Assembly: GCA_031366795.1 (NCBI GenBank)
Contig: JANLOX010000245.1
Location: forward strand, 1,691-65,690
From: Candidatus Eiseniibacteriota bacterium
GTDB taxonomy: Bacteria; Eisenbacteria; RBG-16-71-46
Direction: 5' to 3'
DNA length: 64,000 bases
This document shows, in pieces, positions 10,215 to 36,709 of this stretch. The notes below the pieces were generated by a model. That model had not been told where the DNA came from. It ran no database searches and saw only the letters and a list, made by a program, of their open reading frames with translations. The translations under genes and the position numbers were made by a program. Within the stretch, counting starts at the first letter, position 1, and every line of letters starts with the position of its first letter.

Positions 10215-13200
10215 TTAGTGCATCAGGAGCAGCTTCTTCTGCTGCACCACCCCGCCGGTCTTGAGCCGGTAGAAGTAGACCCCGCTCGACAGTCCGCCCG
10301 CGCTGAGCTCGACCCGGTAGCGTCCCGGAGCCTGCGTGGTATTGACGAGCGACTTGAGCTCACGGCCCTGAATGTCGAACAGGCTGAGTTCGACCTTCTG
10401 CGTCGAGGGAATCGAGTAGACGATGCCCGTCTTGCCGTGGAACGGATTGGGGAAATTCTGGGCCAGCGCGACCGCGCGGCCGCCGCTGCCGATCTGCTCG
10501 ACCGCGACCCGCACGGAGTCGGTGCCGCCGAACTGGTAGTAGCGCGCCGCCATCTCCTGCAGGTACTGGTTGGCGATGTCGAAGTCGCGCACGATCACGG
10601 TGTTCTCGTTGTTCGAGTTCTCCGCCGAGCTGGACCAGTTGTGCGAGCCCGTCAGCACCGCGGCGTTGTAGAGCGGGTTCTCGGCATCGACCACGCAGTA
10701 CTTGTGGTGCAGCAATCCGGCGCCACCATTCTTGACGTGGACATCGACGCCGGCGGTGATGAGCGCCGGGTACTCCGTTCCCGAGTCCGAGTTGTTGTCG
10801 AGATCGCCGCGGACTGCCACTCCGGCGTTGTGGCGCGAGATCAGCGCGGCGGAAATGTCCGAGCGCGTCAGCGTCAGCAGCTCGAAGCCCACCGAGTGCT
10901 GCGCCCCGTTGATCAGCGAGATGATCTTGCCGGTCACGTAGTCCGAGGGACTGAAGTAGCACTCGACCGGCTTGCCGCCAATCACGAAGAAGTGCGGCGT
11001 GTTGTCCTGCTTGCGGGCGCCGAAGCGCGAGACGCCTGAGTTCGGGGTGTCGGTGCTGCTCCCCCACATCTCGTTGAATTCGAGCGTGTAGGTGTTGGCG
11101 AGCGCCTGGTCCTGGATCTCGATCGAGTTCTGGTAGTCGTCGTTCGTGCCCGGGTCCGTGGGGTTCCACGAACCGGTCCACACCCAGGTGCTCTCGGGCG
11201 CTCCGCCGCGCGAGTCGACCGAGACGAACTTGTTATGCATCAGCCCTAGCCCGCCGTTGAGCGGGTCGAAGCGGTCGTTGATCAGTGGCACGCCGCCGGA
11301 CGTCAGCGCCGTGAAGCCGGAGGCCGTGCTGTTGTCGTACTCGCAGATCACCCGGACCTTGACGCCGCGGTTCTTGGCTGCCACCAGTGCGGCCGCGATG
11401 GCGTTGCCGGGGGTGCCGCTCAGGTTGTAGAACGACGCGTCGATTGAACGCTTGGCGTTGTCGAGACGCGGCAACAGTTGGGCGAGCAGGTCGGCATTAC
11501 CGTTCGCTGCATGCCACGCGGCGGCATTCGTCGTCACGCTCTTGTTGAAGTACGCGTTGATCGCCCCGCTCGACTGCGGCGGCGAGGCCGTGCTGAACAC
11601 GGCGACCGGCGAGAAGTTCGCGCCGAGCCCGTCGGCGGAACCCGCGCTGTAGTAGTACACGGTCGCCGGGGTCAGCCCCGTGACCGGCAGCGCGTGCGCG
11701 GTGGTGTTGGTGTTGTCCACTGCGCTGTCGCCCAGGGCTGGCGTCAGGCCATAGCGGACGACGCTCGTGGAGGACACGTCGGTGGTCCAATTGATCCGCA
11801 CGGACGTCGGGGTGATGTTGTCCTCGCGCGGCGTCGTCAGGATGACGGGACCCGCGTGCGGAATAATGTCATCAGGCGTGCGCGGCGAGATTTCGTAGTC
11901 GGCGGTGTACGGCGGCCCCGGGGCCGGGGTGCCGGGCTTGAACTGCTTGAGGATGCCGATGATGTCGAACTGCGACGGCGTGGGCGGGAACGTGGCCGGG
12001 ATGAACACGTTCGTCGTGCCGGAAGCGTCGGTAAGGGTCGAGGCCGCCGAGTTGTAAGTGACGCCATTGATGCGAATCAGCCGACCCTCGTTCGGCTCGG
12101 TAAAGTCGGGCTTGAACGTGGCGTTGACGCCGGCGCAGGTCACCAGCATTGGATCGGGCAACGGGCGCCCGGCGGCGTGTCGCACCAACTGGCTGAAATC
12201 GATGGTGAGTTCGAGCAGGCCGCGGAACTGGGTGACCGAGCCGGTCGCCGTGATGCTGTCCCCGGGCGCGAGCGTGATCGGCGCCAGCGCGGCATTGAAC
12301 AAGTCCACGCCGCCCGAGGCGTCCTGCACATAGACGTCGGTGCGCGTGTCATTCAGGTTCGCGGTGACGATGCCGGTGACGCTGGCTTCCGCTCCGACTG
12401 CGTAGGGCGCGGCGCACACGCCCGAGGCGTTGTTGACGTGGAGCGACACGATCGGCACGAGATCGAGCACGCGGATGCTCGGCTGCTTGAGGATCGAAAC
12501 GAGCGTGCCGGCAGCGACGGCGGTGCGCGTGGTGAAGGTCGTGCCCCCCTTGGTGGCGGGCGTGGTCAGGTTTGCGATGGTCACGGTGCCGCTGTCGACG
12601 GCCGTGACTGCCGCGTTGTTCACGAAGATCGAGTCGCCGAGCAGGGAGACCGAGGCGCTGGCGAACGCCGTTCCCGCCAGGCTCACGTCACCGACGGTGT
12701 GCGACCAGGTCCACGATGATGGAACGAGGATGGCGACCTTGGTCAGCGTGTAAGCGGAGTCCTGCCCCACCGAGAGGGTGATCGCGCTGAGCGAACGGTT
12801 GGTGTACACGACCGTCGGCGAGATTCGTGCGAGGCCCGTGCCATTACCCCCCGCGGCGAGCGGCGGTTCGATTGGGCTCGAGGCGTTCTGCGGGTTGCGG
12901 CTGTGCGTCTGCAGCACGAAGTCGCTGCCATTGACGTCGGTGTCCTGGCCATTGCCCGCGAGGGCGTGCAGTCCGCCGGTAAACATCGAGTCCGCGGTCG
13001 AGGTCGCGAAGGCTTTGCGCTCGACGCTGTTGCTGGTGGTGCTGGTGCCGACCGACGGGGCGTCGCTACCCCCTTCGGGGCTGACGGCCGTGCCGTAGCC
13101 GACCTTGTCCACCTGCGCAGAGCTGGCGTCGAGAATGCGCAGATGGGCGTTGTCGGATAGACCGACGGTCCAGCTCGCCGCGTTGTAGTCAGGCGCCGCA

Positions 13201-13526
13201 GCACCGGTGTACACGGTTTGGTTCGCGATCAAGAAATAGCCGTGCGGCGCGATGACGGTGTTCGAGGGCAGCGTGGCGCGGTCGCTCCACGTGGTGCCAC
13301 TGCTGCCCGAGGAGTACTGCAGCTTCCAACCCGAGATATCCACCTGCACATTCGTCGGGTTGTACCACTCGCAGAATTCATCGAACGCGCCCGCCGGTCC
13401 GCGCGAGGCGAATTCCGAGATCACGACGTGATTGGCGGCCGCGTGCGCCGTGGGCACCGCCGTCGCGGCGAGCCCAAGGCCAATCAGGGCCATGGAGAGA
13501 ATGAGCAATCGGGGCAAACAACGCAT
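10215..13526 (-). CDS. secreted phospholipase D/HKD-family enzyme with N-terminal lamin-tail domain, FN3-like domain and T9SS-type C-terminal sorting domain
   Basis: Signal peptide; LTD-like block (NHVVISEF...GWKLQY...GYFLIAN). Two HxKxxxxD motifs (MHNKFVSVD...TGSWNPT and LHHKYCVVD...TGSHNWS). Tail NFPNPFHGKTGIVYSI...GVYFYRLKTGG. GGAG Shine-Dalgarno. Confidence 0.8.
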   Translation of the reverse strand: MRCLPRLLILSMALIGLGLAATAVPTAHAAANHVVISEFASRGPAGAFDEFCEWYNPTNVQVDISGWKLQYSSGSSGTTWSDRATLPSNTVIAPHGYFLIANQTVYTGAAAPDYNAASWTVGLSDNAHLRILDASSAQVDKVGYGTAVSPEGGSDAPSVGTSTTSNSVERKAFATSTADSMFTGGLHALAGNGQDTDVNGSDFVLQTHSRNPQNASSPIEPPLAAGGNGTGLARISPTVVYTNRSLSAITLSVGQDSAYTLTKVAILVPSSWTWSHTVGDVSLAGTAFASASVSLLGDSIFVNNAAVTAVDSGTVTIANLTTPATKGGTTFTTRTAVAAGTLVSILKQPSIRVLDLVPIVSLHVNNASGVCAAPYAVGAEASVTGIVTANLNDTRTDVYVQDASGGVDLFNAALAPITLAPGDSITATGSVTQFRGLLELTIDFSQLVRHAAGRPLPDPMLVTCAGVNATFKPDFTEPNEGRLIRINGVTYNSAASTLTDASGTTNVFIPATFPPTPSQFDIIGILKQFKPGTPAPGPPYTADYEISPRTPDDIIPHAGPVILTTPREDNITPTSVRINWTTDVSSTSVVRYGLTPALGDSAVDNTNTTAHALPVTGLTPATVYYYSAGSADGLGANFSPVAVFSTASPPQSSGAINAYFNKSVTTNAAAWHAANGNADLLAQLLPRLDNAKRSIDASFYNLSGTPGNAIAAALVAAKNRGVKVRVICEYDNSTASGFTALTSGGVPLINDRFDPLNGGLGLMHNKFVSVDSRGGAPESTWVWTGSWNPTDPGTNDDYQNSIEIQDQALANTYTLEFNEMWGSSTDTPNSGVSRFGARKQDNTPHFFVIGGKPVECYFSPSDYVTGKIISLINGAQHSVGFELLTLTRSDISAALISRHNAGVAVRGDLDNNSDSGTEYPALITAGVDVHVKNGGAGLLHHKYCVVDAENPLYNAAVLTGSHNWSSSAENSNNENTVIVRDFDIANQYLQEMAARYYQFGGTDSVRVAVEQIGSGGRAVALAQNFPNPFHGKTGIVYSIPSTQKVELSLFDIQGRELKSLVNTTQAPGRYRVELSAGGLSSGVYFYRLKTGGVVQQKKLLLMH

Positions 13527-13663
13527 GGGAACTCCAGGTCGGTAGGGTAGTGATTTGCCCGGTTTGGGGTCGCCGGCTCGCCCTACAAGGGTATCACGCC
13601 CAGCTTGCGGCCCGGTAGACTTGGCTGCGCCCCGGCGGCTGCGCTGAGGGGGCTGGTGTTTGG

Positions 13664-15496: not shown

Positions 15497-15638
15497 GAGC
15501 GGCGGCAGGTTAGCATTAAGTTCGCGGCGATGCAGGCGTTGCGGCCGGTACGCGAAGGTCACACGCTTAGCGCGTGACGCCCTCGGGTAGGATGTTGACG
15601 TCGCGCCGCGTGAGTGAACCTTCAGCAGCGGAGGTCCT

Positions 15639-22205: not shown

Positions 22206-22469
22206 GGTGAGCGTGACGCGCCATCCTAATGCGATGGCGTTGCTTGGGCCAAGCCCCGCGTTCCGGTGGCGCATGGCACCGACTATGCAGTGTAGGGGTA
22301 CGAGACCTCGAAGGGTGCCATGCGTCCGCAGGGTCGACAGGCGTCCTGCCCTCGCGGCAAGGCGCACCTGTTGCATCCTGCGAACGGCAACTCCTCCTTG
22401 CCCCGGTTCGCAGGTCGGATCGTCCGATGCCTGATCAACCTGCCCGCAGTTCCAGAGGGGAATGCTTTC

Positions 22470-25400
22470 GTGCAGCGACGCTTGAGTAACGGGTGCCTTG
22501 CGGTTGTGGTGAGTCTCATGGTGCCTGCCTTAGCCGCGGCGGCCACCGTGCCGCCCCAGTTCGTCGATGAGAACATCGCTCCAGGATCGACGTTCACCGA
22601 CCCCACCGCGATCGCCTACCTGCCCGGGGGCCGGCTGCTCGTCGCGGAGAAGCGCGGCCGCGTCTACTCGATCACGCAGGGCGTCAAGAGCGCGAACCCC
22701 CTGTGGTCGCGCGAGAACGAAGTGATGAATGACGGCGACCGCGGCCTGCTGGGTCTCGCGGTCGATCCCAACTACGCCACCAACCACTACATCTACCTGC
22801 TGTACTCGGTCGACCCTGATTCGGACGGCGTCGACACCGCCCCCACGGACGACTTCGGCCGGCTCACGCGTTATCGCATCAGCTTCACCGACTCCACGAC
22901 CGTCGATGCCGCCTCACGCACAATCCTGATGGGCGTCAGCTGGCGCTATGGCCCCGTTCACTGCTTCAACTCGCATGCGGTGGGATCGCTGCGCTTTGGC
23001 GCAGACGGCAGCCTGCTGGTCTCGGCAGGCGATGGCGCCTCGTGGGCCACGACCGACGCGGGTGGGCTCGATGCGGGTGATTTCGGCGCGAGCGTCAACC
23101 AGACGGATCCCTACCAGGACATCGGTTCGTTCCGGGCGCAGTCGCTGAGCAGCCTCAACGGCAAGGTGCTGCGCATCAATCCCGCCAACGGCGCGGGTTA
23201 CCGCAGCAATCCCTACTTCGACGGCAATCCCTACTCGGTCCGCTCGCGCATCTGGGCGTATGGAATGCGCAACCCGTTCCGCTTCTGCGTCCGCCCTTCC
23301 ACCGGCGTTGCCGACACCTCGGCCGGAAATCCGGGCACGCTGTTCATCGGCGATGTGGGATGGGAGACATGGGAAGAAGTCAATGTGGTCACCGCACCCG
23401 GACCGAATTTCGGCTGGCCCTGCTATGAAGGCAACGGCACCCAGCCCGCGTACCAGGCCGCCAATCCTGCCCACAACGGTTGTGGCAGCAACGGCACCGC
23501 CGACAACCCGGCGATGCAGTCCTCCCCGCTGATGACGTGGCATCACTTGGATGCCGCGCTGGGTTCGCCGGCCGGCTTCGCGGGCAACTGCGTGATCGGT
23601 GGCATGTTTTACACCGCCACGAAATATCCCGCGGTCTATCGCGGCGGTTACTTCTTCGCGGATTTCGGCACCAACTGGATTCGCTGTGCCACGCTCAACG
23701 CCAGCAACCAGGTCGTCTCGGTGAGCGACTTCGCCACCGGCCTCACCGGCCCGGTCGACTTCGCGCCCGATCCCGTGACCGGTGATCTTGTCTACGTTGC
23801 CATCATGACCGGCGAAGTGCGGCGCATCCGCTTCACCGGCATCAATGGCAACGCGCCGCCGGTGGCCATGGGCGTAGCCAGTGTGAGCTACGGCACCTCG
23901 CCTCTGACCGTGAGCTTCTCGAGTGCGGGCACCTATGATCCGGAGGCGCAGCCGGTCACGGTGTCGTGGGCGTTCGGCGATGGTCCCTCGAGCAACATCC
24001 CAAACCCGAGTCACACCTACTTGTCGCCGGGGACTTACGCGGCGGTGCTCACCGCCGACGATGGGCAGGGGGGTGTCGGCCGCGACACCCTCATGATCGT
24101 GGTTGCCGGCTCGACCGCATTCCCTGCCTCCCCAGTGCTCGACTTGTTCAATCGCGCCGATGCCGCCTTGGCAACGCCCTGGACCGGCAACCTTACGGGA
24201 CTCACCGTAACGGCCAATGCCCTCGTCTCGAGCGGCGAATACTCCTCCGCCCTGTGGGGAACCGCCGCCTACGGCGTGAACCAGGAAGCCTACGTGACAC
24301 TCTCCACCGCATCGCCGCTGGCCACCGAGCAGGATCTGTTGCTCAAGGTGCAGGGTGCCGGGCCGGACGACGCCGCGATCGAAGTCTGGTACTCCGCTTC
24401 GTCCACCAGCGTCAACGTACTCACCTTCGCGCTCCAGCAGGGTTGGGTGCAACGCGGCGTGCTGTCTCCCATCAACTTCGGCCCGGGCGACCGTTTCGGC
24501 GCGCGCGCGTTGGCGAATGGCGATCTGCAAGTGTTCAGCGGGCGCGACCTGCTCGGCACGGTGAGCCTCGGCGATTGGCCATTCGCGCGGCGCGGCGGAC
24601 GCATTGGGTGTTCGTTCACCGATGCCGGTGGTTCACGCTTCGACGATTTTGGCGGTGGCGACTCCAACCTCGGCGTCAGCGCCGCGCCCGTCGTACACGT
24701 GCTCATGCCCAATGGCGGCGAAGCATGGACGGGCGGCACGGCCCACGCCATCACATGGAATGCGACGGACGACTTTGGCGTTACCTCGGTCGATGTCGCC
24801 TATCGGGAAGCCGCGAGCCCCGCGTGGCTTCCGCTGTCACTCGGCCAGGCCAACAACGGCAGCTACACGTGGTTCGTCCAGAACACCCCGAGTTCGACCG
24901 TGAAGGTCCGGGTCACCGCGCGCGACGCTTCGGGCAACGCGGGGGTTGATTCGAGCGATGCCGTCATGTCGATTCTCGCGACCCCCGGTGGTCACGTCCC
25001 GACGACCCTGCGCGATTTCCACCAGCCGGGCACGCAACCGCTCGAGGCGGGAACCTTCAGCAGCCACGACGCGTGCTACAGCTGCCATGGCGGCTACAAC
25101 GCCGCGGTGGAACCCGGGCAGGGATTCCGCGGCACCATGATGGCCCAGGCGGCACGCGACCCGCTGTTCTACGCCTGCCTCGCGGTCGCCGAACAGGACG
25201 CGCCGTCGTCGGGCGACCTGTGCATCCGTTGTCACGCTCCGCTCGATTGGCTCGGCGGCCGCAGCCAGCCGACCAGTGGCGCCAACATCTCGACGCTGGG
25301 ACGCGACGGCGTCACCTGCGACTTCTGCCACCGCATGGTGGATCCCATTTACAAGCCCGGCGTCAGCCCGGCGGAGGACCAGACCGTGCTCGCCGGCATG

Positions 25401-26894
25401 CTTCCCGCACATGTGCCCACCAGCCGCTCGAATGGCCAGTATGTGGTCGACGCCAACACACGCCGCCGCGGCCCCTTCACCGACCCCGCGACACCGCACG
25501 CCTTCGTGGCGTCGCCGTTCCATTCATCGAGCGACTTGTGCGCGACCTGCCATGAAGTGTCGAACCCAGTGTTCGCCCGCGCGCACGGATCCAAGTACGT
25601 GGCGGGTCCATTCAATACCCCCGCCGACTCGATCAGCTCGGCGACGCTGATGCCGCTCGAGCGCACCTATAGCGAATGGAAAAACAGCGCATTCCCCACC
25701 GGCGTGTTCGCGCCGCAGTTCGCGGGCAACATTCCCGATGGCACGGTGCGCTCCTGCCAGGATTGCCACATGCGCGACGTGACCGGGCAGGGCTGTGACT
25801 ACGGCACGCCGCCGGTGCGCTCCAACCTGCCGATGCACGACATGATGGGCGGCAATGCCTGGGCGGGCGGCGTCATTGCCTCGATGTTCCCGAATGAAGT
25901 CGATGCCGCTGCGCTGGCCGCGGGTGCGGCGCGTGCGGTGTCGATGCTGCAGAAGGCCGCGACCGTGGATGTCCGCGTGCTGCCGCAGGGGGATAGCCTG
26001 CGCGCCACCGTGGTGGTCACGAACCACACCGGTCACAAGCTGCCGACGGGCTACCCGGAAGGCCGCAGGATGTGGATCCATCTCGTGGCGAAGGATGGCG
26101 CAGGCAACGTCGTCTACCAGTCGGGCGTTTACAACGCGTCGACGGGTGTGTTGGCGCGCGATGCCAAGGCGCGGATTTACGAAGCCGAACTCGGGCTCTC
26201 CCCCGCATTCGCGACGCAGCTGGGCCTGCCGGCGGGACCGAGCTTCCACTTCGCCTTGAACGACACGCTGTATAAGGACAACCGCATTCCGCCGGCGGGT
26301 TTCACCAACGCGGCGTACGATGTGTTCGGTGGCGCGCCGGTGGATCTCGAGGGGCCGACGCCGCGCTACGCCGACAACCAGAACTGGGACATCGCGACCT
26401 ACACGCTGCCCGCCGCCGCGGCCTCGGTGGTGGCGACGCTCTACTACCAGACGACCTCGAAGGAATACGTCGAATTCCTCAAATCGGAGAATACCACCAA
26501 CGCCGCAGGGCAGACCCTGCAGACGGCGTGGACCAGCAACGGCCGCGCGGCGCCGGTGGTGATGGCGAGTGACTCGACACGCACCCAGGTGCTCAGCGTC
26601 ACGGACTCAGCCTTGCCGCGCACCGTGGCGTTGCGCGCGCTGGCGAACCCGTTCCGCGGCCCCCTCAACCTGATGCTGTCGCTGCCGCGCTCCGCCAGCG
26701 TGCGCTTCGAAATCATCGATGTCGCAGGCCGCGTGGTGCGGCGAATGACGCCGCAGCGCGTCGCCGCGGGCGAGCAGCGCCTGAGTTGGGATGGCCGCGA
26801 TGCCGATGGTCACGCCGCCCATCCGGGCGCCTACTGGGCGAGCGTATGGGTGGATGACCAGCGCCTGGTGAAGAACGTCGTTTCATTGCGCTAG
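22470..26894 (+). CDS. secreted fusion protein: soluble quinoprotein-type glucose/sorbosone dehydrogenase beta-propeller + PKD domain + Ig-like domain + pentaheme c-type cytochrome domain + T9SS-type C-terminal sorting domain
   Basis: GTG start with GAGGGG Shine-Dalgarno and a signal peptide. GDVGWETWEEVN...NFGWPCYEG (GSDH). WAFGDGPSSNIPNPSHTY (PKD). CxxCH motifs CYSCH, CIRCH, CDFCH, CATCH, CQDCH at ~25072-25768. Tail ANPFRGPLNLMLSLP...GAYWASVWVDD. Confidence 0.8.
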   Translation: MQRRLSNGCLAVVVSLMVPALAAAATVPPQFVDENIAPGSTFTDPTAIAYLPGGRLLVAEKRGRVYSITQGVKSANPLWSRENEVMNDGDRGLLGLAVDPNYATNHYIYLLYSVDPDSDGVDTAPTDDFGRLTRYRISFTDSTTVDAASRTILMGVSWRYGPVHCFNSHAVGSLRFGADGSLLVSAGDGASWATTDAGGLDAGDFGASVNQTDPYQDIGSFRAQSLSSLNGKVLRINPANGAGYRSNPYFDGNPYSVRSRIWAYGMRNPFRFCVRPSTGVADTSAGNPGTLFIGDVGWETWEEVNVVTAPGPNFGWPCYEGNGTQPAYQAANPAHNGCGSNGTADNPAMQSSPLMTWHHLDAALGSPAGFAGNCVIGGMFYTATKYPAVYRGGYFFADFGTNWIRCATLNASNQVVSVSDFATGLTGPVDFAPDPVTGDLVYVAIMTGEVRRIRFTGINGNAPPVAMGVASVSYGTSPLTVSFSSAGTYDPEAQPVTVSWAFGDGPSSNIPNPSHTYLSPGTYAAVLTADDGQGGVGRDTLMIVVAGSTAFPASPVLDLFNRADAALATPWTGNLTGLTVTANALVSSGEYSSALWGTAAYGVNQEAYVTLSTASPLATEQDLLLKVQGAGPDDAAIEVWYSASSTSVNVLTFALQQGWVQRGVLSPINFGPGDRFGARALANGDLQVFSGRDLLGTVSLGDWPFARRGGRIGCSFTDAGGSRFDDFGGGDSNLGVSAAPVVHVLMPNGGEAWTGGTAHAITWNATDDFGVTSVDVAYREAASPAWLPLSLGQANNGSYTWFVQNTPSSTVKVRVTARDASGNAGVDSSDAVMSILATPGGHVPTTLRDFHQPGTQPLEAGTFSSHDACYSCHGGYNAAVEPGQGFRGTMMAQAARDPLFYACLAVAEQDAPSSGDLCIRCHAPLDWLGGRSQPTSGANISTLGRDGVTCDFCHRMVDPIYKPGVSPAEDQTVLAGMLPAHVPTSRSNGQYVVDANTRRRGPFTDPATPHAFVASPFHSSSDLCATCHEVSNPVFARAHGSKYVAGPFNTPADSISSATLMPLERTYSEWKNSAFPTGVFAPQFAGNIPDGTVRSCQDCHMRDVTGQGCDYGTPPVRSNLPMHDMMGGNAWAGGVIASMFPNEVDAAALAAGAARAVSMLQKAATVDVRVLPQGDSLRATVVVTNHTGHKLPTGYPEGRRMWIHLVAKDGAGNVVYQSGVYNASTGVLARDAKARIYEAELGLSPAFATQLGLPAGPSFHFALNDTLYKDNRIPPAGFTNAAYDVFGGAPVDLEGPTPRYADNQNWDIATYTLPAAAASVVATLYYQTTSKEYVEFLKSENTTNAAGQTLQTAWTSNGRAAPVVMASDSTRTQVLSVTDSALPRTVALRALANPFRGPLNLMLSLPRSASVRFEIIDVAGRVVRRMTPQRVAAGEQRLSWDGRDADGHAAHPGAYWASVWVDDQRLVKNVVSLR

Positions 26895-27261: not shown

Positions 27262-27286
27262 AACAACAGTCGATCCGGAGGGGCGC

Positions 27287-27676
27287 ATGAAGGAACTCCA
27301 AACATTGAGCCGCCGTGAGCGTGAGATCATGGACATCGTGTTCGGCACCGGCGCCGCGTGTGCCACCGCCACCGAAGTGCGTGAACGCATGCCCGATGCG
27401 CCGAGCTATTCCGCGGTGCGCGCGACGATGCGCGTGCTTGAGCAGAAGGGCCTGCTCAAGCATGAACACGACGGCAAGCGCTATGTTTACCGGCCGACGC
27501 TGCATCCGCTGAAGGCGCGCAAGAACGCCATCACCCACCTCGTGAACACCTTCTTTGATGGCTCGGCCGCCGGAGCCTTGCTGACGCTGCTCGAACAGCC
27601 CGGCAATGACATCACGCCTGCCGAGTTGGACCGCATGGCGCAATGGATCGATCGCGCGCGAAAGGAAGGCCGCTAA
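27287..27676 (+). CDS. BlaI/MecI/CopY family transcriptional repressor
   Basis: Penicillinase_R-type winged helix (LSRREREIMDIVF...TATEV...YSAVRATMRVLEQKGLL). Stop overlaps the downstream start (TAATG). Confidence 0.85.
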   Translation: MKELQTLSRREREIMDIVFGTGAACATATEVRERMPDAPSYSAVRATMRVLEQKGLLKHEHDGKRYVYRPTLHPLKARKNAITHLVNTFFDGSAAGALLTLLEQPGNDITPAELDRMAQWIDRARKEGR

Positions 27677-30126
27677 TGGGTTCCTGGAGCTCCGCCGTGG
27701 GGTCAGCCGCGGATGCGGTGACTGCAGGTTCCGTGCTGCTGTTCCTCCTGCGCGTGACGATTGTCGCCGCGACCGGGCGCCTGCTGCTGGCCCTGTTGCC
27801 GAAGGCCTCAGCCGCGTCGCGCCACTTGGTCGCCACCGTGACGCTGGCGGCACTCGTGGCTTTGCCCATCGTGATGGCGGTGGTTCCCGCCTGGAAGTTG
27901 CCGATGCTTCCCCAGCGGGAGTCGTTCCGCGTTGCGGCTCCCGCCTTGTCGGTGACGACCGCGGAGACATTCGTTCGTCGCACCTACGATGAGGTGGATG
28001 GCGATGTTCCGTTCGCTGCCGCAACACCGCGTTCCACCCCTGCCGCGCCTCGTGCGGCGCTTCCCAGCGCAACGCCCCGCTCGCCCGCGATTCCCATGAC
28101 GTGGCCACTGGCGTTGACCCTCGTGGTGATTGGCGCCTCCGAGCTGATGCTGTTGCGCTGCGCGTTGTCGCTGGCGGCGGCTGCATGGTTCGCGCGCTGC
28201 GCGGACGACGTGACGGAGCCCGGGTTGATCGAGGCATTCGATGCGGCTCGCGGCCAGCTCAATGTAGGGCGCAACGTCAACCTGCGTATCACCTCGCGCG
28301 TTTCGGTTCCCGTCGTCGCGGGAGTATTCCATCCGACGCTGCTGCTGCCCCCCGAAGCGCGCGCCTGGAGTCGTGAGCGCCTGGACGTCGTGTTCCTCCA
28401 CGAGTTGGCTCACGTCCAGCGGCTCGACACCTTATCGCTGGTGGTGGCGCGCCTGGCCGGTGGACTCTATTGGTTCCATCCCATCGTTCGCGGGCTGGCG
28501 CTCGAGGCGCGACGCGATTGCGAACAGGCGTGTGACGATCGCGTGCTGGCGAGCGGGATCCGCGCTTCAGTCTATGCAGAGCATTTGCTGACCATCGCCC
28601 GCACAGCCGCGGTCCGCGATCCGTTGGGCACTGCGGTGCTGGCGATCGCGCGGCCGTCCAACCTCGAACAACGCCTGTCATCGATCCTGAGCTTGGGCGT
28701 TGAACGCGCCCCTGCCTCACGCGGCGCCGTCGCGCTCGCCGCGCTACTCGGTGCGCTGCTGCTGCTGCCGCTGGCCTCGGTACATGTCACCGCGGCGCCC
28801 GCTCACGCTGCGAGCAAGACTGACACGCTCGTTTGGCGCTCGAACCGCGTGGCGCCCGTCGCGCCGGTGGCATCACGCCGGCCTGCCCCGGCTTTGCGCG
28901 CGCTCGCACCACCGGCAGCTCCCGCAGCCCCTTCGGCGCCTGGCATCCCGGCTCCCGTGGGTAATTCATGGAGCAGCTCGTCAAACTCCGGGGGGGACAA
29001 CTACCCGGACCGTTCCGGACGCGATTGGTATTCACGCGCGCGCCGTAACTACGAGCGCGACCATTACGCCGAGTCGGGCGACCAGTACGAACGCGCGGCT
29101 CGCGCCGGCTACAACATCGAAACGGCGTTCTACGATGCCGCCTGCTCCTACTCCCTGGCGCACCAGACCGAACGCGCCTTCTCGGCGCTGCGTGACGCGG
29201 CCAATGCGGGTTGGGACGATGCGGACCAGATGAACTCGGACGATGACTTCGACTTCATCCGCCATGACCACCGCTTCAAGGAGATCGTCGAGGAGGTGCG
29301 TCACGCCGATCCCGATGAGGCGGATCGCAAGTCTGCGAGCGCAGAATTAAAGGCGCTGCGCTCGCAGCGCTCGAGCGACGCCAATGACTGGGGCAGCAGC
29401 GGCGTGTCCCTGATGCACTCGGGCGACCCGGCGAAGGCCGTGACTGCATTCGAGACCCAGATCAAGATCAGGCCAACGGCGAACGCGCTGTACAACCTGG
29501 CGTGCGCCCATGCGCTCAATGGCGACCACCGTGCGGCGTATGAGGCGCTGGAGCGTTCAATCGCCGCCGGATTCAGCAGCCCGGAGCACATGCGCAAGGA
29601 TGATGACCTCGAAGCCCTGCAGGGTGAGAAGCGCTTCGATGAACTCGTACGCATGACGGAGATGCTCGAGTTGAACGACGAGCACCTGAGCGACAACGAG
29701 CCGGCCGGCTGGAGCAAGACGCTGCCCCGCTACCAGCGGGTGTCGCAGCAATATCCCAACGTGGGCAGGGCGTGGTTCAACCTCGGCTATGCGCAACTTC
29801 GCGCGCGCCGGTTCGAGGACAGCCGCGCGTCGTTCGAACGGGGGCTGGAACTCGGCTACCGCCGCGGCACCTCGATGTACGACTTGGCCTGCGTCTCGGC
29901 GCAACTGCGCGAGCCGAGCGAAGCGGTGAAATGGCTGCAGCGCGCGAAGGCCGAAGGCATGGAGCTCGCCCTCTATCTCGCGACCGATCGCGACCTCGAC
30001 CCCATTCGCTCGGATTCCGGTTTCCGTGAATTCAAGCGCAGCGTTGGGGACGAAACCTTCGAGCGGGGACGCCGGACACTGAAGCAGAAGCTCGACAAGC
30101 TGGGACGCGCGCTCGACGATATGTAG
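27676..30126 (+). CDS. BlaR1-like M56 family membrane peptidase/sensor with C-terminal TPR domain (no penicillin-binding domain)
   Basis: TM helices; VVFLHELAHVQRLD (HExxH). Ala/Pro-rich linker, then >=4 TPR-like repeats. Confidence 0.8.
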   Translation: MGSWSSAVGSAADAVTAGSVLLFLLRVTIVAATGRLLLALLPKASAASRHLVATVTLAALVALPIVMAVVPAWKLPMLPQRESFRVAAPALSVTTAETFVRRTYDEVDGDVPFAAATPRSTPAAPRAALPSATPRSPAIPMTWPLALTLVVIGASELMLLRCALSLAAAAWFARCADDVTEPGLIEAFDAARGQLNVGRNVNLRITSRVSVPVVAGVFHPTLLLPPEARAWSRERLDVVFLHELAHVQRLDTLSLVVARLAGGLYWFHPIVRGLALEARRDCEQACDDRVLASGIRASVYAEHLLTIARTAAVRDPLGTAVLAIARPSNLEQRLSSILSLGVERAPASRGAVALAALLGALLLLPLASVHVTAAPAHAASKTDTLVWRSNRVAPVAPVASRRPAPALRALAPPAAPAAPSAPGIPAPVGNSWSSSSNSGGDNYPDRSGRDWYSRARRNYERDHYAESGDQYERAARAGYNIETAFYDAACSYSLAHQTERAFSALRDAANAGWDDADQMNSDDDFDFIRHDHRFKEIVEEVRHADPDEADRKSASAELKALRSQRSSDANDWGSSGVSLMHSGDPAKAVTAFETQIKIRPTANALYNLACAHALNGDHRAAYEALERSIAAGFSSPEHMRKDDDLEALQGEKRFDELVRMTEMLELNDEHLSDNEPAGWSKTLPRYQRVSQQYPNVGRAWFNLGYAQLRARRFEDSRASFERGLELGYRRGTSMYDLACVSAQLREPSEAVKWLQRAKAEGMELALYLATDRDLDPIRSDSGFREFKRSVGDETFERGRRTLKQKLDKLGRALDDM

Positions 30127-30764: not shown

Positions 30765-30810
30765 CGCCTCGGGCGTTGAGCGCATCGCGATGAGATTGCG
30801 GGCGACCGCT

Positions 30811-30848
30811 GGCGCGGGACGCGCGGGACGCGCGGGATGCGCGGGACG
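30811..30848 (+). repeat. tandem 9-bp repeat (cgcgggacg x4, one variant) between the TOBE gene and modB
   Basis: gcgcgggacg cgcgggacgc gcgggatgcg cgggacgcga read directly from the sequence. Confidence 0.5.
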
Positions 30849-30864
30849 CGACGCCTCGAGCTGG

Positions 30865-31662: not shown

Positions 31663-32713
31663 GCGGCTGGGCGCGTTCGAGCTCGAGGCGAGCTTCGAGG
31701 CCGCCCTGCCCGGCACGCTCGTGCTGGTCGGTGAGAGCGGCTCGGGCAAGTCCACACTGCTGAAGTTGCTGGCGGGATTGCAGGAACCCGACGCCGGTTT
31801 CATTCGGCTGGACGGGACCGCCGCGGTCGATGTGGCGAGCGGAGCGTGGCAACCGGCGCGCCTGCGACGGATCGGCTACGTCGCCCAGGACTACGCGCTG
31901 TTTCCCCACCTGCGTGTGCGCGACAATGTCGCATTCGGCCTGCGCGCCACGGGCGTGCTGCGCTACGAGGTGGCGGCGCGCGTGGAGCGCACGCTCGGCC
32001 GCCTGGGGCTCGCGGCGCTGGCCTCGCGGTGGCCGCACGAATTGTCCGGGGGCCAGCAGCAACGCGTGGCGTTGGCGCGGGCACTGGTGATCGAGCCGCG
32101 GTTATTGCTGCTCGATGAACCCCTCGCGGCGCTCGACCAGCGGACCCGCCGCGAAGTGCGGCGCGAGTTGCGCGTGCTGATGAGCGAACTGCCGTGTCTC
32201 ACGATCCTCGTCACGCACAGCCCGGCGGATGCCGTGGCGCTCGGGGAGCAGATCGTCGTGCTCGAGGGCGGGCGCATCACGCAGGCCGGCTCGCGCCAGG
32301 ACATGCTGCAGCGGCCACGCACGCCTTACGTGGCGGAGTTCCTCGGCACCAATTTGTTCGCGGCACGGGTCGTCCCGGGAGCCGTCGGGGCGCCGGTGCG
32401 GCTGGACGTCGATGGCGCCGAACTCGCGGTCGCCGATGGCGCGGAAGTGGGCGACGTCATGGCGGTCGTGGATCCGCGCGACATCACCCTGTCGCGCGAG
32501 CGGCCCTCGGGCAGCGCCCAGAATGTGCTGCCCGGCGCTGTCATCGAGTTGACGCCCGAGCCGCCGAGCGGCGATCGCGTGCGCGTTGCGCTGGCGACGC
32601 GACCACCGCTGGTGGCCGAGATCACCCATGCCGCCGCCGAGCGGCTGGGACTGGCGCCGGGCGTGCCGGTGTTCGCTTCGTTCAAGGCGACCGGCGTGCG
32701 CGTGTTCCGCTAG
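31640..32713 (+). CDS. modC: molybdate ABC transporter ATP-binding protein with C-terminal TOBE domain
   Basis: Walker A GESGSGKST, LSGGQQQRVALARAL, Walker B LLLDEP. C-terminal Mop/TOBE segment. Confidence 0.85.
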   Translation: MLQVQLRKRLGAFELEASFEAALPGTLVLVGESGSGKSTLLKLLAGLQEPDAGFIRLDGTAAVDVASGAWQPARLRRIGYVAQDYALFPHLRVRDNVAFGLRATGVLRYEVAARVERTLGRLGLAALASRWPHELSGGQQQRVALARALVIEPRLLLLDEPLAALDQRTRREVRRELRVLMSELPCLTILVTHSPADAVALGEQIVVLEGGRITQAGSRQDMLQRPRTPYVAEFLGTNLFAARVVPGAVGAPVRLDVDGAELAVADGAEVGDVMAVVDPRDITLSRERPSGSAQNVLPGAVIELTPEPPSGDRVRVALATRPPLVAEITHAAAERLGLAPGVPVFASFKATGVRVFR

Positions 32714-32730
32714 CCAGTCGCCCCTCCGCC

Positions 32731-33303
32731 TCAGCGGTGTGTCGAGTCCGCGGCAGCTGGCGCTGCCGCGGGTGCCGCGGCTTCGGTCTGGACTTTGAGC
32801 TGGGCCAATCCCTTCTCGAAGTCCTTGCCCACTGCCTGGTCCATGCTCATGAACAGGCTGATGGCCTTGGTCGTGAAGCTCTGGTCACCGTCCATCGACC
32901 AGGTGACCTGGGTGCCGTTCGGCGCGGGCAGGAATGCGAAGGTGGCGACACTCGTGCTGGCGAACGGCTTGATGAAGTCGAGCTTGATCGCGATGTTCTG
33001 GTTGGGCACAGATTCCAGGATGGTCATCTGGCCTTCGCCGACATCCTTGTTGCCCACCCAATGATAGATCGCGCCCTTGCCGGAGTCCGTTCCGCTGTAG
33101 GCCACGGTCATGCGTGGATCGATCTTTCCCCACGGTGACCAAGCTTGCCAGTGATGGAAGTCGTTCACCAACGCGAACGCCGGGGCCGCCGGGCCGGCGA
33201 GAGTCGTGGAGCGCTCGACGTGGTAGGTGTTGGGGCGCGTGAAGATGAACACCAGCAATGCCGCAATGATGACGAAGAACACGGGTAGCAATCGCTTCAG
33301 CAT
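32731..33303 (-). CDS. SRPBCC (polyketide cyclase/dehydrase-like) family protein with N-terminal membrane anchor
   Basis: N-terminal TM helix; SRPBCC-like beta-rich body; Ala/Pro-rich tail. Confidence 0.55.
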   Translation of the reverse strand: MLKRLLPVFFVIIAALLVFIFTRPNTYHVERSTTLAGPAAPAFALVNDFHHWQAWSPWGKIDPRMTVAYSGTDSGKGAIYHWVGNKDVGEGQMTILESVPNQNIAIKLDFIKPFASTSVATFAFLPAPNGTQVTWSMDGDQSFTTKAISLFMSMDQAVGKDFEKGLAQLKVQTEAAAPAAAPAAADSTHR

Positions 33304-33477
33304 GGAACCCTCCTAGAGCGTTGCGCGGCAGGCGCAACGGCGGCGGACTCTAGCGGATTGCGGGGTGGGGTTCCTATTCGAATCTCAAGGCTTCGATCGG
33401 GTTCAGCGAAGCCGCGCGCCGCGCGAACCACACGCGGCAGCATCCTGCAAGCTGCCCGGCCGATGCATCCCGAAGGG

Positions 33478-33630
33478 TTTACGGGGTTTGCCTCTCGCAC
33501 CACGCTGTTGTTCCTGCCCATCGCCGGTCTCGCCTCGCTGTTCGCGGGTCTCGTCGTGGTGCGCTTGCTGGTGCGGCGCCTGCGTGGCATCACCCACGAG
33601 TTGGCGACGCCGTTGAGCTCGATTCGGGCG
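33478..33630 (+). pseudogene. histidine kinase fragment (TM helix + HisKA H-box, then truncated)
   Basis: LLFLPIAGLASLFAGLVVVRLLVRRLRGITHELATPLSSIR inside ORF 33358..33753. No dimerisation-helix continuation and no ATPase domain follow. Confidence 0.3.
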
Positions 33631-33648
33631 GGTGGTGCTCGGTGGCTG

Positions 33649-33999
33649 CTAGAGCACCCACTCCATCTCGTCGTTGCGCGGCTGGAAACCGTGAGCGCGG
33701 TACACATTCATGCTGTAGCCCTCGCGGGTGCGCGGGTTCCGTGGGCTCGGTAGCCGCGGGTAGTCGAGCAGGATGGCGGAGGCACACGCAGCGCCATCGG
33801 GGGAGAATGCAAGCCACGCGCTGGCCCCGGCAGAACTCATCATCGACCCGAGCTGTATGCTGCAAGCCGTTGCAAACGTATTCGTTGCGAAACCTTCTGG
33901 AAGCTCTCCCAGCTCTGTGAACAGCGCGATCCGCGCGGCGGTCAGCGCCTCGAGATCCGTGAGCGTCGCACGCCGGATCACCAGCTCGGGTTCCGCCAT
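33649..33999 (-). CDS. GNAT-like acetyltransferase, short/possibly truncated (acetyl-CoA-binding motif A missing)
   Basis: LVIRRATLTDLEAL...AWLAFSPDGAACASAILL...EGYSMNVY, then directly ...AHGFQP. About 116 aa from ATG 33999. Confidence 0.35.
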   Translation of the reverse strand: MAEPELVIRRATLTDLEALTAARIALFTELGELPEGFATNTFATACSIQLGSMMSSAGASAWLAFSPDGAACASAILLDYPRLPSPRNPRTREGYSMNVYRAHGFQPRNDEMEWVL

Positions 34000-34024
34000 G
34001 AGCGCGTGCCGACCCCAGCGCCCT

Positions 34025-36709
34025 CTAGCGTTCGACGACCCAGCGGCGCACGCGGCGGCCCGCAGGGGTGTCAAGTCGCACGAGGTAAACGCCGGGTTGC
34101 GTAACTCCCCCCCGCGCCATCGTCCAGTTGGCGGAGTGGCGCCCTGCGGCCATCATCCCCTCGGCGAGGCGCGCCACTTCGCGTCCCTGCAAGTCGACGA
34201 CGGTGAGCCGCACGTTCGCCTCGCGCGGCAAAGTGAAGAACACGCGAGCCGCGCGCGACACCGGGTTGGGGGCCAGCGGCTCGATGGCGAAATCCCTTCC
34301 CCTCCCATTCGGCGCCGAGAGGACGCCGTGGATGGTGAAGGCCGACGTGCTGTGATCCGTTCCGGTGAAACCATCCGCGTCGTGAACCGTGGCGCGAACC
34401 ACCGCGGAGTCCGTCCCGGCGCCCGCGACCGTCCAAGCGTATAGACCGGTGTTCGGGACTCCCATGGCGATCGCTTCGTAGGGCCCACCGAGCCCAGTGC
34501 GCGACAACTCGATATCGACGGTCGCCGTAGGGACGCTGTCGGAGACGGCCCACGTGATGTTCGCGCTCGTCCCCACCGTCATGGTCTCGCCGCCATTGGG
34601 AGCGGTAAGGTCGATCACCGGGATGAAATCCGCCTCGAGGTAAATGGGGCCATCGACGGTCACGGTCAAGGGATTCGCCGTGGACGACTGGTCACCCGCC
34701 CACGCGCTAAATGCGTAGCCGGGTCTTGGATTCGCCGTCAGCGTCACGTTCGAGAAGTAATCATACAGCGGCAGGTCGGGCTGGCGCGCGATGGTGCCAT
34801 GTACCACCGGCACGGCAGCCACCGCAAACTGGTCGGAGGCGAAGTGAGCCACCACCGCGGCGCTCGCATTGAGGACGAGCGAAGCGGGGTTCGTGATGCC
34901 GGTGAGGGCACCGCTCCAGCCGGTGAAGTGCGCGGCGCCATTCGCCGTGGCCGTCAGTGTCACGCTCGTACCCGGTGCGTATTCCACCTGGTTGGGCGTC
35001 CACGCGACCGCACCCGGGCCGTCGATCGTCACCGAGAGCGTGTAGAGGCTGACGACGAATGTCGCGGAGATGGTGTGCGCCGCCAACACATTCGAGAACG
35101 TGTAGCTGGAGAGCGCTCCCACCGCGACGCCGTCCACCGTGAGGCCGGCGATGCGAAAGCCCGCATCGGCGGTGATCGCGAACGACTGGCTTACGGCATA
35201 GGGGACCATTACTGCTCCCGCAGGCGATATCTGCCCGTGCGTCCCGGCGCTCGCGGTGATCGTGTACATCCGCACCCCGAAACTTGCGTCGAGCGTGTGA
35301 TTCGTTAGCACATTGACGAACGTGTAGCTGGCGACGGCCCCGACGGAGAGCCCATCGACCAGCACATTCGCGACCTGGAAACCGGTGAAGGCGCTGAGCG
35401 TGTAGAGCTGGGCGGCGCCCTGGCTCACCGCCGTGATCCCGCTCGGCGCAACGGAACCGCCGGAGCCAGCAGTAGAAGTGATATGCCACTTGCTCACGGT
35501 AAAATTGGCATTGCCGGCATCTGCCGCCGAATTATTCGCCCCATCGCGCGCGGTGGCGCGAATACGGAACGCGGTGCCTTCGGCGGTGTTGACGGTCCAA
35601 GCGTAGGAGCCGGTGTTGGCGAGATTGCCCGCGAGGGCCGTCGGGTACGTGGCGCCGCCATCCAACGACAGGCTCAAGTCGATGAGCACGCCGCCGGCAT
35701 TGTCACTGGCGGTCCAGGTGATGGAGTGCGTCGAACCGGCCTTCCAGTCCTCCCCGCCATTCGGTGAGGTCAGCGTGATCACCGGGGGAATCGTGTCCAG
35801 CACGGTGACTTTCCGCGTGGCCCACAACGTGCCATTCAAGATCAGCGTGCTGTCGGTGGCTTCCTCCCAGCCGTTGAAGATACTGGAGTTGCCGGGCTGC
35901 GCGGTGCCGTCATCCACCGGGGAGCTATCGCCGATGAACAGTACACGGCCGGAGCCATAGACCGACGATGCCACCATGGCATTGGTCGTGCTGCCCTTCG
36001 CTGTACCCGTCATCCACACCTCCCCGCGAACGCTGGGGTTGGCCGCCGGGTAGAGTGTCATCGTCGTGCCGTTGTGGAAAGCGAAGCTGCCCACGGTGCC
36101 GTAGGCGCCGGCGATGATCGAATCACCGAAGGTGATGTTCAGGTTCGAGGACGTCTCGACGATGTTGTTGTTCGCATCGGTCGAGATGCCGAAGTGAACG
36201 CCCAATAGATGCGTCGGGTCCAGCGCGTTCCAGGCGATCGGGGAATCCACGCCATCGCTGTTGCGATCCGATCCCGAGTGGTCGCTGATCGCCACGAGCC
36301 CGCCGCCGTCGCGCACGAAATTGAGGATCGCCGTGGCCTCGGCGGCGCTGAAGGATGAATTCGGCTCGTCGACGATCAGCACGTCGTAGTTCGAAAGGTC
36401 GTAAGGGTTCGAGGTGTTCTGGTAAGTGAGCGCGCTGGTGTTCGTCGCGACGGTGTAGCCGAGTTTGACGAGGTTGATCCCGTACGTCGATATCGCGCCG
36501 AGCCAGTAATTGTCGGGAGTGCTCGCGGTGATCGCCGACTGCGTAGGCACGGGAATCGGCTGCTCGGTGTCGATGATCCAGTCGGCGTTGCCGGCGGTCT
36601 GGGCGTGAAAATTGTCGAACAACGCGCGCTTGGCGGCGGCGGCCGGAAGGGCGAACAGGATGAACGACAGCACAAGCACTGGCAGGCTGTGGAAGAACTT
36701 CCGGGGCAT
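34025..36709 (-). CDS. secreted multidomain protein: N-terminal unknown domain + PNGGE-type Ig-like domains + InlB B-repeat-like domains + T9SS-type C-terminal sorting domain
   Basis: Signal peptide. LTSPNGGEDWKAGSTHSITW and LTAPNGGETMTVGTSANITW. Repeated ~70-aa YTL(S/T)...GxGxV units. Tail APNPVSRAARVFFTLP...GVYLVRLDTPAG. Confidence 0.7.
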   Translation of the reverse strand: MPRKFFHSLPVLVLSFILFALPAAAAKRALFDNFHAQTAGNADWIIDTEQPIPVPTQSAITASTPDNYWLGAISTYGINLVKLGYTVATNTSALTYQNTSNPYDLSNYDVLIVDEPNSSFSAAEATAILNFVRDGGGLVAISDHSGSDRNSDGVDSPIAWNALDPTHLLGVHFGISTDANNNIVETSSNLNITFGDSIIAGAYGTVGSFAFHNGTTMTLYPAANPSVRGEVWMTGTAKGSTTNAMVASSVYGSGRVLFIGDSSPVDDGTAQPGNSSIFNGWEEATDSTLILNGTLWATRKVTVLDTIPPVITLTSPNGGEDWKAGSTHSITWTASDNAGGVLIDLSLSLDGGATYPTALAGNLANTGSYAWTVNTAEGTAFRIRATARDGANNSAADAGNANFTVSKWHITSTAGSGGSVAPSGITAVSQGAAQLYTLSAFTGFQVANVLVDGLSVGAVASYTFVNVLTNHTLDASFGVRMYTITASAGTHGQISPAGAVMVPYAVSQSFAITADAGFRIAGLTVDGVAVGALSSYTFSNVLAAHTISATFVVSLYTLSVTIDGPGAVAWTPNQVEYAPGTSVTLTATANGAAHFTGWSGALTGITNPASLVLNASAAVVAHFASDQFAVAAVPVVHGTIARQPDLPLYDYFSNVTLTANPRPGYAFSAWAGDQSSTANPLTVTVDGPIYLEADFIPVIDLTAPNGGETMTVGTSANITWAVSDSVPTATVDIELSRTGLGGPYEAIAMGVPNTGLYAWTVAGAGTDSAVVRATVHDADGFTGTDHSTSAFTIHGVLSAPNGRGRDFAIEPLAPNPVSRAARVFFTLPREANVRLTVVDLQGREVARLAEGMMAAGRHSANWTMARGGVTQPGVYLVRLDTPAGRRVRRWVVER

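Follow-up and report, generated by a model that had tools for sequence, protein, structure and literature searches.

The window analysed here, a stretch of 64,000 nucleotides with about 45 genes from Candidatus Eisenbacteria or a near relative, encodes three proteins (A, B and C) whose coordinates, obtained from ORF calling and domain scans, are collected in Table 1. The first-pass annotation had placed all three ORFs correctly, although in calling the proteins giant it overstated sizes of 894 to 1474 aa. For protein B, the start at the GTG codon of position 22470 gives 1474 aa and the earliest ATG, at position 22320, gives 1524 aa; each of these two starts is used in public gene calls.

Table 1. 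Positions in the window of the three proteins, their C-terminal tails and the PNGGE-type Ig domains.
Feature	Coordinates	Strand	Remarks
Protein A	10215..13526	-	1103 aa; ORF and domain scan
Tail of A	10218..10472	-	Residues 1019-1103; clear T9SS type A CTD
Protein B	22470..26894	+	1474 aa from GTG 22470; ORF and domain scan
PNGGE-type Ig domain of B (Big_7)	24687..24911	+	Domain scan
Tail of B	26625..26891	+	Residues 1386-1474; apparently of the same CTD family, but divergent and FlgD_ig-like
Protein C	34025..36709	-	894 aa; ORF and domain scan
First PNGGE Ig domain of C (Kre9_KNH/Big_7)	35531..35785	-	Domain scan
Second PNGGE Ig domain of C	34355..34609	-	Domain scan
Tail of C	34028..34291	-	Residues 807-894; a T9SS type A CTD according to the NCBIfam cut-off alone

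The N-termini of A, B and C resembled Sec signal peptides by inspection and with a simple hydrophobicity filter, which makes the Sec export proposed earlier for all three likely. In protein A, the signal peptide is followed by a lamin-tail domain (LTD), a PAP_N/fn3 region, two PLDc_2 domains carrying two HKD motifs and the C-terminal tail; the protein is probably a NucT/ExeM-like secreted nuclease or phosphodiesterase. Protein B consists of a signal peptide, a GSDH beta-propeller, a PKD domain, a PNGGE Ig domain (Big_7), a module of five CxxCH motifs and the tail, and protein C of a signal peptide, a DUF4350/GldG-like N-terminal domain, a PNGGE Ig domain, three InlB B-repeats, a second PNGGE Ig domain and the tail. 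The PNGGE Ig domain is thus found, as had been noted, in two of the three proteins (one copy in B, two in C and none in A).

Comparison of the three tails by BLASTP showed 34% identity between those of A and C (E 8e-13), 35% between those of C and B (E 4e-11) and 27% between those of A and B (E 3e-8). The common C-terminal tail reported for the three proteins is therefore real: the tails, of about 85 aa, are homologous with a similarity far above chance (27 to 35% pairwise identity), and all of them run up to the stop codon. When the window, translated in six frames, was searched with an HMM of these tails, no fourth one was detected; the best remaining match had an E-value of 0.29. The functional motifs of CTDs are a D-x-x-G-R loop between beta3 and beta4, with a conserved glycine, and one or more basic residues in the last strand (PMC11285876). 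Alignment and inspection of our tails placed DIQGRE (A), DVAGRV (B) and DLQGRE (C) in the beta3-beta4 loop and QQKKLLLMH (A), RLVKNVVSLR (B) and RRVRRWVVER (C) at the end, so that, as judged from the alignment, both functional motifs appear to be present in A, B and C.

We then scored the tails with the models of the T9SS type A CTD (TIGR04183, cut-off 23 bits; PF18962, cut-off 27 bits) and of the FlgD Ig-like domain (PF13860, FlgD_ig, cut-off 27 bits). The tail of A scored above the cut-offs of both CTD models (44.4 bits with TIGR04183 and 34.1 bits with PF18962) and did not match PF13860. The tail of C passed TIGR04183 (29.6 bits) but neither PF18962 (13.4 bits) nor PF13860 (15 bits), whereas that of B gave no match to TIGR04183 or PF18962 at E<=0.1 and passed PF13860, with 41.8 bits in the whole protein and 47.7 bits for the tail alone. 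The assignment of the tails to the Por-secretion CTD by HMM scoring consequently held for A, with both models, and for C, with TIGR04183 only, but not for B, which passed neither. None of the three tails matched the type B CTD models (TIGR04131 / PF13585 CHU_C), and the scores of B against the NCBIfam FlgD equivalogs were 14 to 31 bits for cut-offs of 230 to 383.

The first-pass annotation had proposed that, should the tails fail the CTD models and the genome lack the T9SS core components, the tail would be a generic FlgD-Ig-like domain. This description does not fit the tail of B, which is found as a C-terminal single copy and whose family is homologous to that of A over its whole length: the two tail families aligned over 95 columns with an hhalign probability of 99.6% (E 1.4e-23), and on this result we rejected the possibility that the tail of B has an origin separate from the other two. 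When 40 diverse tails of the B family were scanned, TIGR04183 was matched by 31/40, the CTD segment of the PorU model NF033707 by 29/40, PF18962 by 20/40 and, weakly, CHU_C by 3/40. In sequence, the B-type tails were nearer to FlgD than to PorU, the E-values being 1.4e-8 for FlgD (PDB 7eh9) and 2.8e-3 for PorU. Judged by these profile comparisons, the T9SS type A CTD family seems to grade into the FlgD Ig-like domain, and the tail of B would be a divergent member of the CTD family of A.

The AlphaFold2 model of the A tail was an Ig-like sandwich with a pLDDT of 96.5. Comparison of the A-tail profile with the PDB gave as top match the FspA CTD in its T9SS-bound form (8glj_D, E 2.4e-3); the next matches were PorU and the RgpB CTD. 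A Foldseek search with the A-tail model retrieved generic Ig-like folds, with T9SS CTDs at ranks 5, 9 and 29 only, and the model of the B tail was structurally nearest to the CTDs of PorU and mirolase, which also speaks against a generic domain. The tails are thus predicted to form a compact Ig-like 3+4 beta-sandwich of seven to eight strands, similar to the solved CTDs.

A mixed situation, in which A and C are T9SS cargo and the tail of B has diverged towards a different role, for example as an uncleaved surface anchor or a partner-binding domain like the CTDs of PorU and PorZ, would be consistent with the passing of TIGR04183 by A and C, with the failure of B on TIGR04183 and PF18962 and with PorU and PorZ as the nearest structural matches of B; the CTDs of PorU and PorZ stay uncleaved (PMC11285876). 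However, the family of B shows a smooth transition to tails passing TIGR04183 (the 31/40 given above), and tails labelled PF18962 and tails labelled PF13860 occur together on one Eisenbacterial contig, on ordinary enzymes. Unlike PorU and PorZ, whose CTDs are retained (PDB 6ZA2, 5M11), B has no C25 peptidase region and, being a dehydrogenase-cytochrome, it is cargo-like rather than a part of the machinery. We consider a separate function of the B tail very unlikely.

The FlgD_ig-like core was also found as 4 to 25 internal tandem copies in giant proteins, and the fold by itself is therefore not a sorting signal. The tails could then be plain structural Ig-like modules (FlgD_ig/E-set), for instance spacers or binding domains, of proteins that are periplasmic or exported otherwise; besides the internal repeats, this would account for PF13860 being the only model passed by B and for the many unrelated Ig-like domains among the fold matches of the A tail. 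The position of the tails argues against it. All 146 tail copies examined, in 126 loci, lay at the C-terminal end of their ORF, and the single full-length matches (best 150 of 310,268) all ended at most about 4 residues before the last residue. The terminal copies covered the profile from end to end, with its N-terminal NPF strand and its basic last strand, whereas the internal repeats covered the core alone (profile positions ~19-85). On dozens of unrelated secreted enzymes the tail occurs strictly once, at the very C-terminal end, the carriers in the same lineage including an M36 peptidase, GH92-like enzymes, a glycoamylase and GSDH paralogues. It was also kept in all orthologues of A, of which more than 100 with an identical architecture were found in four phyla (Eisenbacteria, Ignavibacteriae, Bacteroidota and Kryptonia), an Eisenbacterial one being named 'T9SS type A sorting domain-containing protein' by NCBI. 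With A and C also reaching the TIGR04183 cut-off, a purely structural role of the tails is quite unlikely.

A search with the Eisenbacterial tail motif YDLxGREVW led to 49 loci of FCB-group phyla. Among the Bacteroidales hosts of such tails, about 19 matched a PorU HMM made from those same loci, and two of them scored 978.7 and 954.1 bits with the NCBIfam PorU model NF033707 (cut-off 420). PorV was located directly downstream in four of the loci with a seed HMM, and in one of these four with NF033710 as well (509.6 bits, cut-off 250). The Bacteroidales hosts of about 1160 aa had been considered as cargo, which was rejected upon their identification as PorU. A Fermentibacteria protein with C25 and CTD regions was tried as a bridge to PorU; among the matches listed, its family was confined to Fermentibacteria and it was multi-copy, which makes it cargo-like. 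Tails of this kind are ordinary for this group of phyla.

T9SS genes have been reported in several FCB phyla besides Bacteroidota (PMC11285876). None of the approximately 45 genes of the window encodes a T9SS component, as the first-pass annotation had stated, and the window contains no flagellar gene. No PorP/SprF-like gene adjoined the tail ORFs. T9SS components were likewise not found in eight loci with Pfam labels, each spanning about 23 kb, on Eisenbacterial contigs of 0.3 to 3.6 Mb, nor were PorL, PorV, PorU or SprA found with Bacteroidota-seeded HMMs in 0.69 Mb of related high-GC DNA (the PorL, PorV and SprA seeds came from the supplement of PMC7323717 and the PorU seeds from fetched loci). 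These HMMs detected PorU and PorV in low-GC Bacteroidota loci only. A rough estimate gives about 0.5 T9SS genes expected in the 0.69-Mb sample if the system is present, so their absence from it weighs little. An NCBIfam scan of ten further secreted ORFs adjoining tail-bearing genes gave 0/10 T9SS parts; identities obtained among them were a glycosyl hydrolase, an internalin-like LRR protein, an M36 peptidase, a 20-unit multihaem cytochrome, a polysaccharide exporter, GH2 and GH92. Our search of the literature found no link of Eisenbacteria to T9SS or gliding, and for this phylum we know of neither a member in culture nor a description of its secretion biology.

The canonical components not being seen in the Eisenbacterial DNA sampled, the tails might direct sorting by something other than a GldKLMN/SprA T9SS, such as the PorU2/PorV2 'putative type IX sorting system' or an undescribed sortase of the FCB candidate phyla. 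Separate NCBIfam models exist for PorU2 (NF052324) and PorV2 (NF052325), the B-type tails form a distinct FlgD_ig-like subgroup, and the M36 family has T9SS-, myxosortase- and rhombosortase-dependent models, that is, alternative C-terminal tags. We regard such a system as unlikely: the DNA sample is far too small for a claim of absence, PorU2 and PorV2 homologues were not found in the Eisenbacterial DNA sampled either, A and C pass the classical type A model, and the closest likeness of the B-type tails is the classical PorU CTD.

Comparison with known systems showed that our tails resemble the T9SS type A CTDs of RgpB, mirolase, FspA and NucA in their length (about 80 aa), in their location at the very end of multidomain proteins that are exported by Sec, in their Ig-like beta-sandwich with an NPF-type N-terminal strand, a D-x-x-G-R loop, a G-x-Y strand and a basic last strand, and in their carriers, which are hydrolases, nucleases and adhesins. 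They differ from them in that the B tail is below the cut-offs of TIGR04183 and PF18962, and in that the host is Eisenbacteria-like, from a group with no described T9SS. The T9SS type B CTD (TIGR04131 / PF13585 CHU_C) likewise acts as a T9SS signal at the C-terminus and belongs to the same broad superfamily. The FlgD_ig label is sometimes carried by T9SS CTDs (PMC11611037). Unlike FlgD (PF13860; PDB 3OSV, 7EH9), B has neither the FlgD N-terminal domain nor a flagellar context; the FlgD hook cap has about 140 to 290 aa in total, whereas B is a 1474-aa secreted GSDH-cytochrome enzyme, and the terminal tail copies have an extra first and last strand missing from the FlgD-type matches. The PEP-CTERM/exosortase, myxosortase and GlyGly-CTERM/rhombosortase systems share the same logic of one short C-terminal tag on many unrelated secreted proteins per genome. 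However, their tags consist of a transmembrane helix and a basic cluster instead of a folded Ig-like domain, and no motif of these types was found in the three proteins.

Taken as a whole, our preferred explanation, which we hold to be fairly probable, is that the three tails are single-copy, C-terminal, Ig-like CTDs of T9SS type A that serve for sorting by a type IX route. Their homology, their membership in the CTD family, their C-terminal position and their expected fold are the results of this analysis; by analogy with Bacteroidota, we infer that an Eisenbacteria-like host possesses a T9SS and uses these tails. According to what is established in Bacteroidota, each protein would cross the inner membrane via Sec by means of its N-terminal signal peptide and fold in the periplasm, and its CTD would be recognised by the type IX translocon and a shuttle of the SprA/PorV type. 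The protein would then be transported across the outer membrane and a PorU-type sortase would cut off the CTD, the protein being released or covalently anchored at the cell surface, in the latter case by attachment to A-LPS. The nuclease-like PLD enzyme, the PQQ-type sugar dehydrogenase-multihaem cytochrome and the adhesin-like repeat protein would thus all be outside the cell. A more speculative proposal, which we think improbable, is that Eisenbacteria have a type IX-like pathway preferring the FlgD_ig-like CTD, with a machinery that may be non-canonical (of the PorU2/PorV2 type or other), and that one of its uses is to place at the surface a PQQ-type sugar dehydrogenase with a five-haem wire, which would couple the oxidation of sugar outside the cell to extracellular electron transfer.

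Knowledge of the T9SS itself is unchanged by these results, and its range would reach Eisenbacteria only once the machinery is found. For the annotation of FCB candidate phyla, a 'FlgD Ig-like domain' that closes a large secreted protein ought to be interpreted as a CTD of the T9SS type and not as flagellar; one family carries both labels. If the tails work as they do in Bacteroidota, the surface and secreted proteome of this organism would be readable from the genome by a tail scan, with a nuclease-like enzyme, an adhesin-like protein and a dehydrogenase-cytochrome fusion among its members.

We located the three open reading frames of the first-pass annotation where it had placed them, in a window of 66% G+C: a PLD/HKD protein (A), a GSDH-cytochrome fusion (B) and an InlB-repeat protein (C). 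The Sec signal peptides assigned to them agree with N-termini that are all signal-peptide-like by inspection and a hydrophobicity heuristic, and PNGGE Ig domains were recovered in two of the three, as annotated. B has two candidate start codons: translation from the GTG yields a clean signal peptide (MQRRLSNGCLAVVVSLMVPALAAAA/T), whereas from the first ATG of the frame, at 22320, the protein is 1524 aa long and its 50-residue leader does not resemble a signal, and public gene calls are divided between the two. Residues ~84-264 of C gave weak matches, all below cut-off, to DUF4350, ABC_transp_aux and GldG (TIGR03521, E 0.003), by which this N-terminal domain would have the fold common to the gliding-associated ABC-transporter accessory protein.

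Tail-bearing proteins and other genes of the window
Feature	Coordinates	Strand	Description
A	10215..13526	(-)	1103 aa; lamin-tail, PAP_N/fn3, two PLD-like domains with two HKD motifs
B	22470..26894	(+)	1474 aa from GTG 22470; GSDH beta-propeller, PKD, one 'PNGGE' Big_7 Ig, five CxxCH
C	34025..36709	(-)	894 aa; DUF4350/GldG-like N-terminal domain, two PNGGE Ig, three InlB B-repeats
BlaI/BlaR1-type pair	27287..30126	(+)	repressor and sensor-protease, downstream of B
SurA_N + PpiC-type peptidyl-prolyl isomerase	54591..58427	(-)	1278 aa, longer than usual for this type
Cyclophilin-type isomerase	58410..59216	(+)	adjoins the SurA_N + PpiC-type isomerase

Comparison of the C-terminal ends by BLASTP showed that the last ~85 residues of A, B and C are homologous (A-C, E 8e-13; C-B, 4e-11; A-B, 3e-8; pairwise identity 27-35%), which bears out the common tail proposed earlier. 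Searched in six-frame translation with an HMM of the three tails, the window yielded no further copy.

HMM scoring, which the first-pass annotation had proposed, placed A above the cut-offs of both T9SS type A sorting-domain (CTD) models (44.4 bits for TIGR04183, cut-off 23, and 34.1 for PF18962, cut-off 27) and C above that of TIGR04183 (29.6) and below that of PF18962 (13.4), while B matched neither model. B exceeded the cut-off of FlgD_ig (PF13860, 41.8), and its matches to FlgD equivalogs were weak and far under their cut-offs. Alignment by hhalign of A-type (119 homologues) and B-type (117 proteins) tails covered 95 columns with a probability of 99.6% and an E-value of 1.4e-23. Among 40 diverse B-family tails, 31 matched TIGR04183 (best 2e-10), 39 FlgD_ig, 20 PF18962 and 29 positions ~1000-1080 of the PorU model NF033707, which are PorU's own CTD; B's own tail matched this segment with an E-value of 1.2e-4. 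Since B-family tails match both sets of models and align with A-type tails, the PF13860 and TIGR04183/PF18962 labels form one continuum, and the B tail belongs to the same domain family as those of A and C. The type IX reading of the annotation is supported in part: by the family of the tails and the TIGR04183 scores of A and C, and not by the direct scoring of B. FlgD_ig is sometimes used as a label for T9SS CTDs (PMC11611037). Both labels, PF18962 and PF13860, also appear on tails of adjacent genes within single Eisenbacterial contigs (L126 13373..15817; L125 15368..16699); in one example a glycoamylase with a FlgD_ig tail adjoins the A orthologue.

The AlphaFold model of the B tail has eight strands (pLDDT 97.2). 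PorU and PorZ are nearest to it by structure, with FlgD behind them in Foldseek, whereas FlgD is nearest by sequence: the B-type profile matched it best in the PDB (E 1.4e-8), followed by PorU (2.8e-3), the RgpB CTD (7.6e-3) and PorZ (0.05). The A tail model (pLDDT 96.5) has the same sandwich; its Foldseek matches were generic, the CTDs coming in at ranks 5, 9 and 29, and the A-type profile matched T9SS CTDs only (FspA CTD 8glj_D, 2.4e-3; PorU; RgpB CTD). The B tail could be kept on its protein, like the CTDs of PorU and PorZ, its structural neighbours; for a tail of one family with those of A and C, we consider such a mixed case very unlikely.

All tail copies over all loci (146/146) lay at the C-terminal end of the ORF. 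When 1.84 billion cluster representatives were searched in full with HMMER, 310,268 proteins matched at E<=1e-3, and in the best 150 of these each single whole-profile match ended at the last residues of its protein. Internal tandem copies, 4-25 per protein and of the FlgD_ig-like core only, are carried by giant proteins of up to 7779 aa (P0376-P0439). Because whole-profile singles are terminal and internal copies are core only, the core fold is a module of general occurrence; the sorting-type domain is the version at the terminus, which has the first and last strands. That the tails are plain structural Ig-like domains would fit the internal copies and the FlgD_ig score of B, would not fit the terminal position of the whole profile, and is unlikely.

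The tail motif YDLxGREVW, sought in 185,579 species genomes, gave 49 loci, from Eisenbacteria, Marinimicrobia/Fidelibacterota, Zixibacteria, Fermentibacteria, Calditrichia, Coatesbacteria, Chitinivibrionales and many Bacteroidota; the few bins with non-FCB labels (Methylomirabilota, Agathobacter, Wujia) may be mis-binned. A metagenome scan for GVYLARVx[VA][DG] gave 69 loci, mostly of 67-72% G+C. Two or more tail-bearing genes were present at 25/115 loci, so three within 27 kb are not unusual. Named A orthologues at 65-66% identity are Eisenbacterial, and the A homologues place the window in Candidatus Eisenbacteria or a close relative; the architecture, tail included, also occurs in Ignavibacteriae, Bacteroidota and Kryptonia. 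The B family (>2300 matches) is rich in Eisenbacteria, and nearly all its tails are labelled PF13860. Clustered CTD-bearing genes are common and orthologues already carry T9SS annotation, one Eisenbacterial A orthologue being named 'T9SS type A sorting domain-containing protein'. Fermentibacteria have multi-copy ~680-aa C25 (gingipain/PorU-like) cysteine peptidases ending in the same CTD (L022 5155..7341; P0256-P0372). At L067 5178..9659, a protein of 1493 aa whose catalytic region is PorU-like has a CTD-bearing protein on either side.

A PorU HMM made from the loci identified about 19 Bacteroidales YDLxGREVW matches as the CTD of PorU, the sortase itself; NF033707 confirmed two hosts (978.7 and 954.1 bits, cut-off 420). 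PorV lay directly downstream in four loci by seed HMM, once confirmed by NF033710 (509.6 bits, cut-off 250). Seven Bacteroidales loci (L037, L048, L049, L040, L042, L032, L041) hold a second PorU-like paralogue a few kb from PorU; some are in bins labelled Bacteroides fragilis, Agathobacter rectalis or Wujia. This may be mis-binning, or lineages described as lacking T9SS may have PorU-like genes.

Neither Pfam nor NCBIfam identified a T9SS component among the ~45 genes of the window, in agreement with the first-pass annotation. T9SS families were absent from eight Pfam-labelled ~23-kb loci of Eisenbacterial contigs of 0.3-3.6 Mb, and ten secreted neighbours were ordinary enzymes or cytochromes by NCBIfam. 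HMMs for PorL, PorV and SprA (seeds from the PMC7323717 supplement) and PorU (seeds from the loci of this analysis) had no match at E<=0.01 in 0.69 Mb of DNA of at least 64% G+C from 63 sources; these empty searches are uninformative rather than negative, because even with the system present such a sample is roughly estimated to hold only about half a target gene. The literature searched nowhere links Eisenbacteria with T9SS or gliding. A 'putative type IX sorting system' (PorU2/PorV2) is also modelled in NCBIfam (NF052324/NF052325), and we give a small but real chance to the tails being signals for a non-canonical system such as this one.

The route from Sec through type IX secretion to a PorU-type sortase is established in Bacteroidota. 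The tails, whose homology, position and fold are shown here, are probably best explained by the same route: A, B and C would be exported by Sec, translocated by a CTD-dependent type IX system and relieved of their tails by a PorU-type sortase. We infer that a T9SS operates in this organism.

In B, a PQQ-type GSDH beta-propeller is joined to a ~600-aa five-CxxCH module (weak ExtKL-like match), and its architecture and length are shared by ~20 orthologues at 54-69% identity. A BlaI/BlaR1-type pair likewise lies downstream of a B orthologue on a 1.45-Mb Eisenbacterial contig (L120 23531..24419). A secreted cytochrome of 1052 aa from Eisenbacteria, in which 20 paired-CXXCH units were counted (TIGR01905, 688 bits; L122 4057..7215 = L002 1201..4359), suggests extensive extracellular electron-transfer capacity in Eisenbacteria. 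B would be a sugar dehydrogenase that is secreted together with its own multihaem electron wire. Beyond this window, two results are modestly useful: the FlgD_ig/T9SS CTD continuum in FCB candidate phyla and the presence of this conserved dehydrogenase-multihaem fusion among the cargo.
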